From the NCBI RefSeq assembly GCF_056712565.1, contig NZ_CM160072.1: DNA of 64,000 bases, one strand, 5' to 3'. Positions 3,800 through 53,540 of the stretch are shown piece after piece. Under the pieces are notes generated by a model. That model was not told the DNA's origin. It saw only the letters and a program-made list of their open reading frames with translations, and searched no databases. Made by a program: the position numbers and the translations under genes. How positions within the stretch are numbered: the stretch's first letter is position 1; every line of letters begins with the position of its first letter.

Positions 3800-4678
3800 A
3801 TGAATAATCATTTCAAGTGTATTGGCATTGTGGGACACCCACGGCACCCCACTGCACTGACAACACATGAAATGCTCTACCGCTGGCTGTGCACAAAAGG
3901 TTACGAGGTCATCGTTGAGCAACAAATCGCTCACGAACTGCAACTGAAGAATGTGAAAACTGGCACGCTCGCGGAGATTGGGCAACAGGCTGATCTCGCG
4001 GTTGTCGTTGGCGGCGACGGTAATATGCTGGGCGCGGCGCGCACGCTCGCGCGCTATGATATTAAAGTTATTGGAATCAACCGTGGCAACCTGGGTTTCC
4101 TGACTGACCTTGATCCCGATAACGCCCAGCAACAATTAGCCGATGTGCTGGAAGGCCACTACATCAGCGAGAAACGTTTTTTGCTGGAAGCGCAAGTCTG
4201 TCAGCAAGATTGCCAGAAACGCATCAGCACGGCGATTAACGAAGTGGTACTTCACCCTGGCAAAGTGGCGCATATGATTGAGTTCGAAGTGTATATCGAC
4301 GAGATCTTTGCGTTTTCGCAGCGTTCCGATGGACTGATTATTTCGACGCCAACAGGCTCCACCGCATATTCCCTCTCTGCGGGCGGTCCTATTCTGACAC
4401 CCTCTCTGGATGCGATTACCCTGGTGCCCATGTTCCCGCATACGTTGTCAGCACGACCACTGGTCATAAACAGCAGCAGCACGATCCGTCTACGTTTTTC
4501 GCATCGCCGTAACGACCTGGAAATCAGTTGCGACAGCCAGATAGCACTGCCGATTCAGGAAGGTGAAGATGTCCTGATTCGTCGCTGTGATTACCATCTG
4601 AATCTGATTCATCCGAAAGATTACAGTTATTTCAATACATTAAGCACCAAGCTCGGCTGGTCAAAAAAATTATTCTAA
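3800..4678 (+). CDS. nadK: NAD kinase
   Basis: 292 aa, [17 protein letters not shown]...[11 protein letters not shown] motif. Confidence 0.95.
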
Positions 4679-8561: not shown

Positions 8562-8924
8562 GGGGCTGATTCTGGATTCGACGGGATTTGCGAAACCCAA
8601 GGTGCATGCCGAGGGGCGGTTGGCCTCGTAAAAAGCCGCAAAAAATAGTCGCAAACGACGAAAACTACGCTTTAGCAGCTTAATAACCTGCTTAGAGCCC
8701 TCTCTCCCTAGCCTCCGCTCTTAGGACGGGGATCAAGAGAGGTCAAACCCAAAAGAGATCGCGTGGAAGCCCTGCCTGGGGTTGAAGCGTTAAAACTTAA
8801 TCAGGCTAGTTTGTTAGTGGCGTGTCCGTCCGCAGCTGGCAAGCGAATGTAAAGACTGACTAAGCATGTAGTACCGAGGATGTAGGAATTTCGGACGCGG
8901 GTTCAACTCCCGCCAGCTCCACCA
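8562..8924 (+). ncRNA. ssrA: tmRNA (SsrA, 10Sa RNA)
   Basis: Begins GGGGCTGATTCTGGATTCGACGGGATTTGCGAAACCCAAGGTGCATGCC, contains tag-peptide coding region, ends ...GGTTCAACTCCCGCCAGCTCCACCA; 363 nt. Confidence 0.95.
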
Positions 8925-22117: not shown

Positions 22118-23484
22118 TGCACTGGCACCTTCAGAGGGATCACCGGCACAAAGCCGGGATGCGTAATGGCATTACGCCGGATAATGTCCGCGTCACGCGC
22201 CGCGTTATCAAACCAGGTCGCCGCCAGCACCAGCGCGGGTAAAACCTCATCCGGTGTGCGCTGAATGATCCGTGCAGACTGTTCAAGGCGCGTGTTGATA
22301 TCCGCATTCAGATCTGCTTTCACCCGGCGCAGCGCCAGAAACAGCACATCACTGGTTGTACGGGACAACTCCTTATCAATTGCCGTATTCAGTGTGTCGC
22401 GAATGTCGGTCAGTTCTTCCCACGTTGGCAGGTCAACCGTGTTTTTCACCGCCGGTGCATTGTTCAGTGCCGGATGCGTGACAGAAGGCCAGCCGGTGCT
22501 CTGCGCGGGTGTTGTTGACTGCCCCACTGTGGCATTCTGCATCACCGCGGAAGTTGTGGGCGCAGGCAATCGTGTGACGGCATACGCCGCTTCGCTGATT
22601 GCGGTCGTACGAAGGGTGCTGGCAACCACGTTACGCTGCTGCGTCGCCGTGGCGGTGGTTTTACTGTCCGTTTTCCAGACGCCGCGCGGTTGCAGATCGC
22701 TGCCGAGGCTGACACCGGAAAGCGTTTTGATCATGGTGACCAGGTCGCTGGCGTTACCATAAAGGCGTTTCCCGGTACGCCACATTTTCTGCACCTGCTC
22801 AACGAAATTTTTGCCTGACGATGGCGGCGGCAGAAGTACCGAGATATCCCCCTGCAACAGCCTGGCGGCATCCGATACGGCAGAATCCACCACTTTCATC
22901 GCATCAGAAACATACCCAAGCATTGTGCTGGCATTACCGACGACGTCGTTCTGCACAAAATCTGCCACGCCATCGATACTGAAACCACTGAAGCTGTCAC
23001 TGATGCAGTCATCCAGTGCAGAACAGGATGACATCAGCGTCTGCGCCGTCGCCGCACCTGAAGTGGGGTAAGAGAGTTCTCCCGCTTCGACAAACTTCAG
23101 GTCAAAGCGGACAATACGCCCTTCACTCTTCGATGTGCTGACCCGAACTTCCCCGTCAACACAGACTTTCAGCTCACCGTAAGTCGGATGGACAAGCGTG
23201 CCGGGACCGGGTTTATTCAGCGCGTCAATCAGGCGATCGCGCTGGTCAAAGCAGTCATCTCCCACCACATAAGCTGTGATGGACGGGCGGAAAGTGATTT
23301 TCCCCAGGTCTTCGGTATAGGGTTTGTCGCGGTTCGGGTATTCGTGCGTTTCCACACGACGACCGGTTCCCGCACTTTCTTCTTCAACCTTAAACGGCAC
23401 ACCGCGAAATGACGCGTCCTGAAGTCTGTCTTTCCACGTCATATAAACTCCGTACATAAAAAATCCCACCGGAGTGGGACTCAT
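22114..23484 (-). CDS. DNA circularisation protein-like tail component (Mu gp43-like)
   Basis: 456 aa immediately downstream of the tape measure gene. Confidence 0.55.
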   Translation of the reverse strand: MSPTPVGFFMYGVYMTWKDRLQDASFRGVPFKVEEESAGTGRRVETHEYPNRDKPYTEDLGKITFRPSITAYVVGDDCFDQRDRLIDALNKPGPGTLVHPTYGELKVCVDGEVRVSTSKSEGRIVRFDLKFVEAGELSYPTSGAATAQTLMSSCSALDDCISDSFSGFSIDGVADFVQNDVVGNASTMLGYVSDAMKVVDSAVSDAARLLQGDISVLLPPPSSGKNFVEQVQKMWRTGKRLYGNASDLVTMIKTLSGVSLGSDLQPRGVWKTDSKTTATATQQRNVVASTLRTTAISEAAYAVTRLPAPTTSAVMQNATVGQSTTPAQSTGWPSVTHPALNNAPAVKNTVDLPTWEELTDIRDTLNTAIDKELSRTTSDVLFLALRRVKADLNADINTRLEQSARIIQRTPDEVLPALVLAATWFDNAARDADIIRRNAITHPGFVPVIPLKVPVQ

Positions 23485-43051: not shown

Positions 43052-43989
43052 CCCCTGAATCCTGCCGGGATCTGGCTGTAGTCCACGTTGTCGTAACTGG
43101 CTTTGAAGTACGGGTCCTCGCGTTTTTCGGTGTACGTACTTACGGACGGCGATAAGCGCAGGGAAAGCTCATCCCATTTTTCCCGCAGCTTCGACGGGCT
43201 GAGCACGTTACGGCACCAGAACGGATCGCGGCTGACGCGGCTGTACATCTCGCAGATTTGTTTGTGAGTACGACCATCCTGCACACACATCAGGCGAATT
43301 TCGTTTGCCCAGGCTGTCCAGTTCGGTTCTTTGGGACGAACCACCTCGCCGTCACATTCGGCAGCCTGCTCGTACAGGGCGATGATTTTTTTCCAGAGCC
43401 ACTGTGCGCAGGTCAAATCATCCTGCGTTCCCCACTGGCGCTTTTTAGGGCTGAATACAACAGCATCAGGATGGCGAGTTAAAAACTCCTGTTCAGCCGT
43501 CTGCGTGTCCGGTTGCGAAGCGTCCGGACGAGAAGTTTTTTTATCTGACGGATCATGTTTTGATTTTACTGACGGATCCCCGCCAGATTCTGACGGGTGA
43601 AAACCCGCTTTTTTGCCAGATTTCGACGCATCAAATTTTGACGGGGCAGATTTTGATGCGTCAGATTTTGACGGGTCAGAATCTGACAGTTGAGAAAATG
43701 CCGCTGCCTGAAGCTTCGCAACGTTAAGCTGATAAACATTCGACGCATTGCGGTTACCCTGGCGACGCGCCTTACGCGTTAACCAGCCTTCTGCTTCCAG
43801 CCGTGCGATAGCCGTTCTGACGGTACTCATCCCCGCGCCAATCTGGCGGGCAATGGTTTCAATTGATGGCCAGCACACACCTTCGTCATTACTGAAATCA
43901 GCCAGGCGGGCCATAATTGCCACGCTGGATAACTTCATGCCTGACGCAGCGCAACCATCCCATACATAGCCGGTTAATTTAGTGCTCAT
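43048..43989 (-). CDS. Replication initiation protein (O-like; N-terminal HTH, internal iteron-encoded repeat region)
   Basis: 313 aa; N-terminal winged-helix-like region; middle low-complexity SKSDASKSAPSKFDASKSGKK encoded by tandem DNA repeats. Confidence 0.6.
   Translation of the reverse strand: MSTKLTGYVWDGCAASGMKLSSVAIMARLADFSNDEGVCWPSIETIARQIGAGMSTVRTAIARLEAEGWLTRKARRQGNRNASNVYQLNVAKLQAAAFSQLSDSDPSKSDASKSAPSKFDASKSGKKAGFHPSESGGDPSVKSKHDPSDKKTSRPDASQPDTQTAEQEFLTRHPDAVVFSPKKRQWGTQDDLTCAQWLWKKIIALYEQAAECDGEVVRPKEPNWTAWANEIRLMCVQDGRTHKQICEMYSRVSRDPFWCRNVLSPSKLREKWDELSLRLSPSVSTYTEKREDPYFKASYDNVDYSQIPAGFRG
43541..43695. repeat. Iteron-like tandem repeats (~8 copies of ~15 bp, GAtTtTGACGgntCA) inside the replication gene; candidate origin
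   Basis: ttatctgacggatca / gattttactgacgga / gattctgacgggtga / gatttcgacgcatca / aattttgacggggca / gattttgatgcgtca / gattttgacgggtca / gaatctgacagttga. Confidence 0.55.
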
Positions 43990-45219: not shown

Positions 45220-45894
45220 ATGAAAACAATCCATGACATCCGGCGGTCTAACGCCAGAAAACTGAGAGATGGTGTTGGCGGGAATTCTTCCTTTGCCACT
45301 ATGATTGATCGCGAGCCAACCCAGACCAGCAGGTTTATGGGAGATGGTGCTACTAAAAATATCGGTGACAGCATGGCACGACACATCGAAAAATGTTTCG
45401 ACCTGCCTGTCGGATGGCTCGATCAAGAACACCAGACAACGAACATCACAAAAAAACCTGATGTTTCAATCACTAATAAACAAATCACATTAGTCCCTGT
45501 CATATCATGGGTACAGGCCGGAGCATGGAAAGAAGTTGGATATTCTGAGGTTGATTTGAGCACAGCAGAAACGTATCCCTGCCCTGTACCCTGTGGGGAA
45601 ATGACTTATATCTTGCGGGTGATAGGTGATTCAATGATTGATGAGTACCGCCCGGGAGACATGATTTTTGTCGATCCTGAAGTACCTGCCTGCCACGGTG
45701 ACGACGTTATTGCATTGATGCACGATACAGGTGAAACCACCTTCAAAAGGTTGATAGAAGATGGGACACAGCGTTATCTCAAAGCGTTAAACCCAAACTG
45801 GCCTGAGCCTTACATTAAGATCAACGGTAATTGCTCTATAATTGGTACTGTGATTTTCTCAGGAAAACCAAGAAGATACAAAATCAAAGCCTAA
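45220..45894 (+). CDS. CI-like repressor (HTH + S24 LexA-like autopeptidase domain)
   Basis: 224 aa; C-terminal RVIGDSMIDEYRPGDMIFVDPE ... TFKRL gives Ser/Lys dyad. Confidence 0.8.
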   Translation: MKTIHDIRRSNARKLRDGVGGNSSFATMIDREPTQTSRFMGDGATKNIGDSMARHIEKCFDLPVGWLDQEHQTTNITKKPDVSITNKQITLVPVISWVQAGAWKEVGYSEVDLSTAETYPCPVPCGEMTYILRVIGDSMIDEYRPGDMIFVDPEVPACHGDDVIALMHDTGETTFKRLIEDGTQRYLKALNPNWPEPYIKINGNCSIIGTVIFSGKPRRYKIKA

Positions 45895-45933: not shown

Positions 45934-45966
45934 TTGACAATGTACCTTTGGGATACATAATGTACC
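45934..45966 (+). promoter_or_regulatory. pL/OL-like promoter with overlapping operator
   Basis: TTGACA-N16-CATAAT overlapping tgtacctttgggataca (same consensus as OR sites) plus an extra tgtacc half-site. Confidence 0.4.
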
Positions 45967-46096
45967 CAAGAGAAACAACAAACAGGCAGGACGCCCACGA
46001 AGTAGCCGCCTGGGGCATATGAAGTCCAGGATGATTCGTTAGCAACAAAAAAGCGCCCTATAGGACGCTTCGCTCTTTAACAATCTGGATGACTTA

Positions 46097-46609
46097 TTAC
46101 TCAGATTTGAACTTTGGTTCTGGCAAAAGAGGAGGAGTTGAGTCCTCGAATCGTAGCCAGTGCTCCCAGATATCGTGGGATTGTAATTCCAGAAGACCAA
46201 TTTGACGTGATGCAACTGCAGTGCCAGCTATAGTTCCTCCTGCATAATCAACCTGGACGGACTTTGACGCTTTCTCAATTAATTCTGTCCAAGCTTCACT
46301 TTCCGCGTTAAAAGAAGCAGTTAATTCCTGCAGACGCTGTGGATCATCCTTGTTGTCTTGTTTCAAACGATTCAGGGCGGCCACCGAATACTTATTCTTA
46401 ACCCAACTAACCTGAGCTAACTGAACTCTCTGACAAGCGTCCATATCAGTAGTTGTTTCCTGAGGCATATCAAAGCAGGAAATAAAAAAAGTCTCAACAC
46501 CATCATTTAGACTACTGCTCGGCTGGTTCAAAGCATCAGAAGCATTGGATGCTATCGGTATTATCAGTGCTACCGACAGAATCAAACGTTTAACATAAAT
46601 CGCTCCCAT
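46097..46609 (-). CDS. Secreted hypothetical protein (signal peptide), moron
   Basis: 170 aa; N-terminal KRLILSVALIIPIASNA signal peptide; opposite strand to flanking early genes. Confidence 0.5.
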   Translation of the reverse strand: MGAIYVKRLILSVALIIPIASNASDALNQPSSSLNDGVETFFISCFDMPQETTTDMDACQRVQLAQVSWVKNKYSVAALNRLKQDNKDDPQRLQELTASFNAESEAWTELIEKASKSVQVDYAGGTIAGTAVASRQIGLLELQSHDIWEHWLRFEDSTPPLLPEPKFKSE

Positions 46610-46895
46610 TTAATTATCCCCTCTAAGAACAGAGTCATCCAGATTAGCCGAATCCTTGTTGTTGGGGAATAACCAGGCCCACCTCGCCTGATGTGGCTAA
46701 AAGCAGGCACATAACAGCTAAGTATTTTCAACCAGAGAGAATCCTTAGCGTTGTGGTGAATGCGGCTCAGCGCACGCGGGTTAAGGTTGAGGCTGACAGT
46801 CGACCTTCTGTGGATACCCACCCGCCTGGTGTGCAACCTTCGCCAGGCACCGGGAGGCACCCGGCACCACAACTTTATGCTGTGTGTAGTCCTGG

Positions 46896-47029
46896 CGGTA
46901 CCAGCTTGTACCCTTGCTTCCGGCTGGTACCGCTCTTTTTACAAAACAGAGAAGAGCATCACCGGACGACGGGCTCATAACCCAATCCACCCGGGCGGCT
47001 GCCACCGCAGGTGTTCTTCTCTGTTTTGT
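46896..47029 (+). promoter_or_regulatory. GC-rich structured leader with two long perfect inverted repeats upstream of the yfdP-like gene
   Basis: cggtaccagc(46896-46905)/gctggtaccg(46923-46932) and acaaaacagagaaga(46941-46955)/tcttctctgttttgt(47015-47029). Confidence 0.45.
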
Positions 47030-47077
47030 GGAGAAACCAACCGACCTTGCAGGGTCGATATGATGAGGAGCAGCAAA

Positions 47078-47440
47078 ATGGCTAGCGAACGCAGTACCAA
47101 CGTGCAGGAATTTATCGGGGAGCTGGACGGCGGCGTATTTGAAACCAAAATCGGCGCAGTTCTCAGTGAAGTCGCTTCCGGTGTGATGAACACGAAAACC
47201 AAAGGTAAGGTCTCGCTCAACCTGGAAATCGAACCGTTTGATGAGAACCGTGTGAAAATAAAACACAAACTCTCATATGTTCGTCCGACTAACCGCGGGA
47301 AAATTTCCGAAGAAGACACCACCGAAACGCCGATGTATGTCAATCGCGGTGGTCGCCTGACTATTCTGCAGGAAGACCAGGGACAATTACTGACTCTTGC
47401 CGGTGAACCTGACGGAAAACTCCGCGCAGCAGGTCATTAA
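47078..47440 (+). CDS. YfdP-like prophage protein
   Basis: 120 aa from MASERSTNVQEF with GAGGAG RBS 8 nt upstream; followed by YfdQ/YfdR-like genes as in CPS-53. Confidence 0.5.
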   Translation: MASERSTNVQEFIGELDGGVFETKIGAVLSEVASGVMNTKTKGKVSLNLEIEPFDENRVKIKHKLSYVRPTNRGKISEEDTTETPMYVNRGGRLTILQEDQGQLLTLAGEPDGKLRAAGH

Positions 47441-53356: not shown

Positions 53357-53540
53357 CGGGTTCAACTCCCGCCAGCCAATCATGATTGGACGGTGTAAGG
53401 ACTACACCAACAAAAACAGGAAGTTATAAGTCTCAGCAGGACACCGACCAGACGGTGAGGAGACAAAAAAGGATACGCAACGGAGTCGCGACTCCCTATG
53501 ACATTAAAGCCCGCTGATGCGGGCTTTTTTATTGGTCCTG
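53357..53540 (+). repeat. attR: second copy of the ssrA 3' core plus ~170 bp flanking sequence, with terminator
   Basis: cgggttcaactcccgccagc followed by sequence ~90% identical to 8918-9085 (5-bp tccac indel) and hairpin aaagcccgctgatgcgggctttttt. Confidence 0.7.

Follow-up and report, generated by a model that had tools for sequence, protein, structure and literature searches.

A promoter-less STnc100/PasD-type RNA domain joined to a DicF-like terminator module in the early-left leader of a lambdoid prophage

Introduction

STnc100 is a family of prophage small RNAs (sRNAs) related to PasD (bioRxiv 10.64898/2026.05.13.724894). PasD1 and PasD2 were seen as Hfq-dependent sRNAs on Northern blots (PMC8550237), and EcOnc27, which is overlapped by STnc100, is bound by Hfq and lies downstream of stx2B (PMC12711010). 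DicF of the Qin prophage is produced from an operon transcript by termination together with RNase III and RNase E processing and occurs in forms of 190 nt and 53 nt; the same study found no internal promoter for Qin dicF, nor any transcript exceeding dicF in length (bioRxiv 10.1101/2023.04.14.536235). In the related phage ST64B, the RNA STnc1310 and the genes downstream of it are strongly induced together by peroxide and by nitric oxide shock (PMC7067206). Here we analyze the untranslated leader that lies upstream of the gene yfdP, at positions 46740-47077 of a 64,000-nucleotide stretch of DNA (RefSeq assembly GCF_056712565.1, contig NZ_CM160072.1; this whole stretch is referred to as the window). 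It is part of the early-left (pL) operon in a lambdoid prophage of the e14/SfV/ST64B type, which is integrated at ssrA.

Two further groups of phage RNAs provide points of comparison. Antitermination by the put RNAs of phage HK022 depends on the beta-prime zinc-binding domain, and lambda 6S RNA and StxS are sRNAs that consist of short, terminated leader transcripts. DicF base-pairs with the ftsZ, xylR and pykA mRNAs. An earlier, sequence-only reading of the window had proposed that the leader is a cis-acting RNA element (a processing site, an attenuator or a put-like antitermination RNA) or a small RNA. Of these proposals the small RNA fits best, given a full-length, near-threshold match to STnc100, the attenuator survives only in the simple sense of a terminator within the leader, and the put-like RNA fails. 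The leader joins a DicF-like terminator module to an STnc100/PasD-type domain that scores below the Rfam threshold and has no promoter of its own.

Results

Domain E resembles the STnc100/PasD family of prophage sRNAs

A permissive Rfam scan, in which the gathering score of STnc100 (RF02076) is 47 bits, returned a full-length match (model positions 1-206) at 46720-46942 with a near-threshold score of 45.4 bits and E-values of 2.9e-7 (14-kb search) and 1e-8 (0.5-kb search). The sequence core of the family is present within this match, in a region that we term domain E (Table 1): the 22-mer CACCGGGAGGCACCCGGCACCA is identical to the family consensus, and GUGGUGAAU at 46752-60 stands for the family's 5' strand UGGUGAAU. 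The exact 22-mer also occurs in more than 120 IMG/VR viral contigs, in very different surroundings. Domain E has a compact, pseudoknotted five-helix fold (minimum free energy -56.6 kcal/mol) homologous to the STnc100/PasD/EcOnc27 family. With STnc100, PasD1, PasD2 (enteropathogenic Escherichia coli) and EcOnc27 (= sRNA103, enterohaemorrhagic E. coli) it shares the core fold with its 22-mer and 5' strand, the P5 hairpin, the P6 hairpin with its AGGCA loop, a rho-independent terminator approximately 25-45 nt after the core (46894-46940 in the window) and location in a lambdoid prophage. It differs from them in its P2 helix (UGCG-GCUNAG-CGCA in the window, CCCCC...GGGGG in the family), in an extra insertion closed by P4, in lacking a promoter of its own, and in its position in a pL leader rather than in the late region. 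No second copy of E was found in the window.

The helices of E are supported by covariation. In a MAFFT alignment of the subclass to which the window copy belongs (A1), P1 and P6 are 99% paired and carry 13 double-sided changes among 14 subclass variants, with a covariation score that was reached by 0 of 500 shuffles; P6 switches to CCUGG/CCAGG in Qin- and Rac-type copies and to UCGGG/CCCGA in an Enterobacter copy. As A1 is unreliable in its variable middle, it was used for P1 and P6 only, and P5 and the pseudoknot were tested by anchored scripts. This revealed that P5 is built, always at one position, from over ten stem sequences unrelated to each other, and that there is a segment at a fixed distance 3' of P2 that is complementary to the P5 loop in nearly all variants (AAGGCUG/CAGCCUU, GAACUG/CAGUUC, CAGUUAA/UUAACUG, CCAGUC/GACUGG, CUGGUG/CACCGG and CUGACAA/UUGUCAG). 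Cognate pairs of this pseudoknot have a mean of 7.2 complementary nt versus 5.7 for non-cognate pairs, and the observed sum was reached in 0 of 10000 permutations. The pseudoknot is absent from the consensus structure line of the Rfam alignments that we obtained. The presence of G-U pairs in the helices identifies the plus strand as the RNA strand. An identical core with compensated helices is found in phages of Escherichia, Salmonella, Cronobacter, Pantoea, Buttiauxella and Enterobacter, and a scan of species-representative genomes, which served as extra covariation and not as a distribution map, added eight exact matches (Pantoea, Buttiauxella, Enterobacter and contaminant-looking contigs of metagenome-assembled genomes). 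Folding and covariation across homologues thus bear out the structured RNA that the sequence-only reading had suspected.

A DicF-like terminator module follows domain E

The first of two perfect inverted repeats in the leader pairs GCGGTACCAGC (46895-46905) with GCTGGTACCGC (46923-46933) over 11 nt around a 17-nt loop. As its stem (-23.7 kcal/mol) is followed directly by UCUUUUU (46934-40), it forms a canonical intrinsic terminator, which we term T; the sequence-only reading had noted no U-run and set a simple intrinsic terminator aside, which for this stem is wrong. T was missed by our terminator scan because the scan limited loops to 3-8 nt. The stems of T vary among relatives with their complementarity kept. 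The single strand preceding it, UGCUGUGUGUAGUC, is kept in the window, e14, phiNP, phiES15, ST64B and the Rac-type sequences L143 and L180 (alignment A2), and UGCUGUGUGUAGUC together with GGCGGUAYCAG...CCGCCCUUUUUA is retained in phiNP and Rac-type phages, which have a domain other than E upstream. The terminator and its preceding single strand form a separable module.

This module occupies the position of DicF, and T is homologous to the DicF terminator in position and in the 5' arm of its stem. Alignment A2 and synteny place a terminator-ended unit inside the early-left operon next to E, and A2 contains a graded series that leads from genuine DicF through L137, L143 and L180 to e14 and the window. 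The Rfam model of DicF (RF00039, threshold 48 bits) gave only 15.9 bits at 46881-46935 (E 0.81), against 76.7 bits for genuine DicF, and so the module is DicF-like by position and anatomy and is not a DicF member. Like the dicBF region of Qin, the locus is a lambdoid early-left operon under a CI-like repressor with a leader RNA delimited by an intrinsic terminator and E as its direct neighbour, the 5' arm of the terminator stem reads UGGCGGUAYCAGYUU and the tail CCGCCCUUUUUA, and long hairpins are present, those upstream in Qin being cut by RNase III. The two differ in the single-stranded 5' part, which is UGCUGUGUGUAGUC in the window and UUUCUGGUGACGUU in DicF, and in order: the window has E, then T, then yfdP, and Qin has dicF, then E, then dicB. 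Two pairings that might have linked the modules were rejected. The window-specific antiterminator pairing of CCUGGCG (46891-97) with the P5 3' arm CGCCAGG, and a 9-bp pairing in Qin between DicF nt 6-14 and AACGUCACC of E that is lost in relatives, are not kept in ST64B, phiES15 and Rac and were treated as chance.

The window copy belongs to a promoter-less subclass embedded in early-left operons

The window copy falls into an operon-embedded subclass beginning GUGGUGAAUGCGGCUNAGCGCACGCGG. We took a census of unique sequences, scoring as a promoter any sigma-70-like match of at least 8/12 that ends 4-10 nt before P1. In the class beginning GUGGUGAAUC, all copies had such a promoter (20/20) and 12/20 had an intrinsic terminator within 130 nt downstream; in the subclass, none of 68 unique copies had a promoter at P1, and an intrinsic terminator was located within 130 nt downstream in 43/68 and immediately upstream in 15/68. 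Among the window-type (E-then-T) copies listed, the distance from E to T is constant at 24-25 nt. The sole nearby plus-strand promoter match upstream of E in the window (46590-46617, 9/12) lies in an inserted gene described below, is not conserved, and was rejected as a promoter for E.

Members of the subclass always lie in the early-left operon, between the gene for a CI-like repressor and the first early genes, and the gene after E differs among them: xis-int in e14, a yfdP-like gene in ST64B, phiNP and mEp460, and kil in phiES15. In the Qin prophage of E. coli K-12, E occupies the dicF-dicB spacer (23377-23510 of sequence L239) in the order dicF, E (STnc100 34.4 bits, E 1e-5, sub-threshold), dicB, with the dicB ATG 24 nt past E. 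Rac-type prophages have the order DicF-like terminator, E, kilR; with a coverage of >=80%, this arrangement occurs in 1852 complete genomes of E. coli. Among 5426 such genomes, at least 1607 carry the window-type leader at the same coverage. The e14 copy in ymfH (4076-4387 of sequence L001) carries lesions in the 22-mer core. In ST64B (L123), STnc1310 maps to 2874-2947, approximately 70 nt upstream of E, as CUGGCGG...CCGCCAG followed by CUUUUU, and the leader holds two intrinsic terminators before sb37; the joint induction of STnc1310 and downstream genes implies that polymerase passes both terminators on induction.

The leader region is highly mosaic among phages. Upstream of E, the sequences L054, L127 (phiNP), L241 and L243 contain a conserved leader module with T-loop-like hairpins (GUCCG-UUCAAUU-CGGAC), and their region between the repressor gene and yfdP is a mosaic of structured RNA modules.

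The region upstream of yfdP is non-coding

The sequence-only reading held that the long open reading frame (ORF) 46760-47440 is mostly non-coding, and our comparison agrees for all of it upstream of 47078. The yfdP gene starts at the ATG at 47078, where RefSeq annotates it in the source genome, behind the Shine-Dalgarno sequence GAGGAG (47065-70), and its true coding sequence is 47078-47440. No frame upstream of this start stays open across homologues: the open frame changes between the window, e14, ST64B, mEp460 and L163, each frame is stopped in some homologue, and the lengths of the region (285, 283, 305, 288 and 275 nt) differ by amounts that are not multiples of three. In E. coli ATCC 11775, which is 100% identical to the window, 46753-47063 is listed by PGAP as a pseudogene of a hypothetical protein and labelled 'frameshifted', and a search of the ORFs against NCBIfam gave no family match. 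The substitutions in the helices are compensatory.

That the region encodes a protein, either YmfH-like or an N-terminally extended YfdP, is hardly credible in view of these findings, even though the K-12 e14 counterpart carries the legacy gene name ymfH, the window contains the ORF itself, the e14 ORF alone has a weak match to PHROG 33599 (function unknown) in protein-family searches that otherwise gave nothing meaningful, and ymfH overexpression set off a retron toxin in a screen in which the RNA would be overexpressed too (bioRxiv 10.1101/2020.06.22.160242). Positions 46740-47077 are best described as an untranslated leader and not as a protein gene.

Inverted repeats and the hairpins between T and yfdP

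The second perfect inverted repeat pairs ACAAAACAGAGAAGA (46941-46955) with TCTTCTCTGTTTTGT (47015-47029) over 15 nt across a 59-nt spacer and can be extended to 25-nt arms at 84%. Both repeats are where the sequence-only reading had placed them, the first being 11 nt long, and the leader is GC-rich as it had stated (57.1% vs 50% for the window); the stems it called nested stand side by side (46895-46933, then 46941-47029). Both are rarer than chance: when 46740-47077 was shuffled 1000 times with its dinucleotide composition preserved, 1% of the shuffles contained a perfect inverted repeat of at least 11 nt and none contained one of 15 nt. Folding z-scores against shuffles were -5.6 (46936-47085), -2.8 (46720-46945) and -5.5 (46620-47100).

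The second repeat forms the long hairpin H2 (-48.2 kcal/mol), which together with the small hairpin H3 makes up a structured 5' untranslated region (UTR) of yfdP (46936-47057). In an alignment of ten variants (A3), 7 of the 34 predicted pairs of H2 show compensatory change, and its inner hairpin GCGGCUGCCACCGC becomes CUGUGGCCACAG in e14 and GCUGUUACAGC in ST64B. In L163, a long hairpin of unrelated sequence takes the place of H2 and is followed by the conserved GUGGAGAWAC; the sequence of H3 is swapped, with the hairpin retained, in ST64B, phiNP, L163 and L107. By its length and by analogy with Qin, H2 is a candidate for an RNase III or other processing site in read-through RNA.

Operon context and other elements of the leader

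The pL-like promoter is overlapped by operators of the form TGTACC-N5-GGTACA (45941-57 and 45961-77); the same palindromes recur at oR (45136-52 and 45186-202), and the cI-like repressor gene ends at 45894. pL is the probable source of transcription through the leader. The absence of an N-like antiterminator gene, to which the sequence-only reading had drawn attention, was confirmed in the pL operon, where none was seen among the ORFs or in the annotation; a Q-like antiterminator for the late genes is annotated.

A conserved RNA of approximately 65 nt, which we term L, follows pL and consists of AACAGGCAGGACGCCCACGAAGUAGCCGCC, a covarying hairpin and GGAUGAUUCG, ending where the homology between phages ends. 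It lies just downstream of many pL promoters of differing immunity types, and RNAalifold predicts three helices in which 4 pairs show compensatory change. L is present in a single copy in the window and has no Rfam match. As a cis-acting candidate, L could let polymerase pass T, and by position it is a better candidate than E for a put/nut-like antitermination site. The GGAUGA common to put and L is too short to count.

After L comes a hairpin that can terminate in both directions (46050-46071), and behind it the plus strand carries CGCTCTTTAACAA (46071-83), which matches the boxA consensus perfectly. A nut site was considered here and set aside: this boxA is not conserved in e14, ST64B and phiNP, a boxA-like CGCUCUUUUUAC in the tail of T is likewise unconserved in relatives, no boxB was identified and no N-like ORF was seen. 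Between pL and the leader, a minus-strand gene (a moron; 46097-46609, 170 aa with a signal-peptide-like N-terminus) is inserted, flanked by 24-nt inverted repeats (46082-46105 / 46622-46645); given its orientation, transcription from pL would run antisense through it. Positions 46637-46717 are a module common to Klebsiella, Hafnia and Cronobacter phages, independent of E, and its reverse strand reads TTTACC-16-TGgTATACT in relatives, a likely extended -10 promoter for the moron.

Elsewhere in the window, the tmRNA gene ssrA occupies 8562-8924, and 15 nt that copy the 3' end of tmRNA recur at 53357-53371; the two probably mark attL and attR of a prophage of approximately 44 kb. On the minus strand, 43614-43688 contains iteron-like repeats (UCUGAC/GUCAAAAU units) in a long imperfect palindrome and is probably a replication origin; it first surfaced as a chance microRNA match.

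Table 1. Features of the early-left leader and their coordinates in the window.
Feature	Position	Strand	Basis
pL-like promoter, TTGACA-16-CATAAT	45934..45961	+	promoter scan 11/12
L, conserved RNA just after pL	45979..46046	+	conservation, covarying hairpin
Domain E, STnc100/PasD-type RNA core	46750..46873	+	Rfam RF02076, 22-mer, covariation
E helix P1 (GUUGUGGUG/CACCACAAC), closing	46750-58 / 46865-73	+	
E helix P2, small	46761-64 / 46771-74	+	
E helix P4, closes insertion	46776-80 / 46821-25	+	
E hairpin P5	46824-31 / 46841-48	+	
E hairpin P6, CCGGG-AGGCA-CCCGG, AGGCA loop	46850-54 / 46860-64	+	
E pseudoknot, AAGGUUG with P5 loop CAACCUU	46783-89 / 46834-40	+	
E invariant 22-mer	46848-69	+	
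Conserved single strand, candidate seed of DicF-like sRNA	46878..46891	+	conservation
DicF-like module (single strand + terminator)	46878-46942	+	
Intrinsic terminator T, 12-bp stem GGCGGUACCAGC/GCUGGUACCGCU, 17-nt loop, UCUUUUU tail	46894..46940	+	
H2, ~25-30 bp stem, U-tract of T paired with GGAGA (47030-34), three-way junction cap with two small hairpins	46936..47034	+	
H3, small hairpin downstream of H2 and upstream of the yfdP ribosome-binding site	47042..47057	+	
yfdP Shine-Dalgarno GAGGAG and ATG	47065..47080	+	sequence, RefSeq annotation

Discussion

We lean, by somewhat better than an even chance, towards reading E and T as an operon-embedded sRNA unit by analogy with DicF and the STnc100 relatives. 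Upon inactivation of the repressor, polymerase starting at pL would transcribe E, and much of this transcription would stop at T. The terminated RNA would consist of E with its tail, or, after a cut by RNase E in the AU-rich linker, of a DicF-sized RNA of approximately 65 nt, and may be a stable Hfq-type sRNA that acts in trans; for the window RNA, Hfq binding and trans action are suggested by its relatives PasD and EcOnc27. T would at the same time attenuate yfdPQR-xis-int. In RNA that reads through, the U-tract of T would fold into H2, which would then likely be processed, much as RNase III cuts the upstream hairpin of the Qin dicF precursor. A terminated phage-operon leader transcript that doubles as a regulatory RNA would resemble the lambda pR'-tR' 6S RNA and StxS of Stx phages; the window operon is driven by pL rather than pR' and has no Q-binding or pause signals.

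Several observations weigh against an sRNA unit. The window copy falls 1.6 bits short of the STnc100 gathering score, and none of the other subclass copies tested against Rfam reaches it. Published RNA sequencing of ST64B is dense and led to the annotation of STnc1310 upstream, with no separate non-coding RNA over E-T, and so an E-T RNA may fail to build up as a separate species. E has no terminator behind it in Qin, Rac and several other relatives, where it leads directly into the ribosome-binding site of the next gene (dicB, kilR or a yfdP-like gene); such an arrangement resembles an element of the 5' UTR that acts in cis more than the body of an sRNA. Lastly, a near-invariant core beside freely varying tails is unusual for an sRNA that acts by base pairing.

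The last two points lend weight to a less probable alternative, in which E acts mainly in cis within the leader. By binding a ligand or a host factor (Hfq, ProQ, Rho/NusG, RNA polymerase or a nuclease), it would set the expression, stability or Rho sensitivity of the next gene, often a toxic division inhibitor, and T would be a separate module. E lies 20-40 nt upstream of the dicB, kilR and yfdP-like ribosome-binding sites with no terminator between, its invariant junction and loop nucleotides and its pseudoknot are typical of ligand- or protein-binding RNAs, and the order of E and T is interchangeable. Moreover, kilR is reported to be normally repressed, with a transient induction under nalidixic acid or oxidative stress that does not depend on the SOS response (PMC12711010). 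Such a role is harder to reconcile with the free-standing members of the family, which behave as sRNA genes with their own promoter and terminator, with the diversity of the downstream genes (kil, dicB, kilR, yfdP, xis), and with the lack of any conserved alternative pairing between E and either the Shine-Dalgarno sequence or T. More tentatively still, and on balance doubtfully, E may be an autonomous RNA domain that binds a host machine or ligand and is reused both in free-standing RNAs and in the leaders of early genes, forming together with L an RNA-only early-left control in phages that lack N. If so, the leaders it serves would include those of the division inhibitors dicB, kilR and kil, and its free-standing forms would be STnc100, PasD and EcOnc27.

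It is unlikely that the locus is a decaying remnant, an sRNA cassette that lost its promoter, that now rides in the leader without a function and whose inverted repeats are an old terminator and a neighbouring hairpin. The missing promoter, the lesions in the e14 core and the mosaic character of the region would all agree with decay, but the core is kept with compensated helices across phages of six genera, the window-type leader is widespread in E. coli genomes, and the spacing of E and T is constant.

The put-like reading, in which E would modify polymerase in cis so that it passes T and later terminators without N, is more improbable again. Like putL and putR of HK022, E would be an RNA that acts in cis and is encoded in the early operon of a lambdoid phage with no N-like gene, and in the window it lies upstream of a terminator; strong induction of ST64B genes behind two leader terminators also means that some antitermination or read-through must exist. 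However, a comparison with the putL and putR sequences and a search of HK022 for the core gave no match at <=3 mismatches and no Rfam-type similarity, and E is a 124-nt multi-helix pseudoknot whereas put comprises two stems in approximately 70 nt. There is one copy of E in the window and none in the pR operon, whereas put occurs once after pL and once after pR. E is upstream of a terminator in the window, e14 and phiES15, but downstream of one in Qin, Rac (DicF or DicF-like) and ST64B (STnc1310), many family members are stand-alone sRNA genes that end at their own terminator, and L is better placed for antitermination.

Whichever role E plays, its recognition takes a spurious gene out of the annotation: on the comparative evidence, K-12 ymfH encodes RNA and not protein, and so do its 'frameshifted' copies. 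It also joins three prophage sRNA stories that have been studied separately, those of STnc100/EcOnc27, PasD and DicF, and places the same pseudoknotted fold in the unstudied 175-nt dicF-dicB spacer and the kilR leader of E. coli K-12. As the subclass scores below the Rfam gathering threshold, annotation pipelines miss its copies, which they do in thousands of genomes. If the E or the T module regulates host or phage genes upon induction, this would bear on the control of toxic division inhibitors by cryptic prophages, and the leader described here bears on how lambdoid phages that lack N get past the terminators of their early-left leaders.

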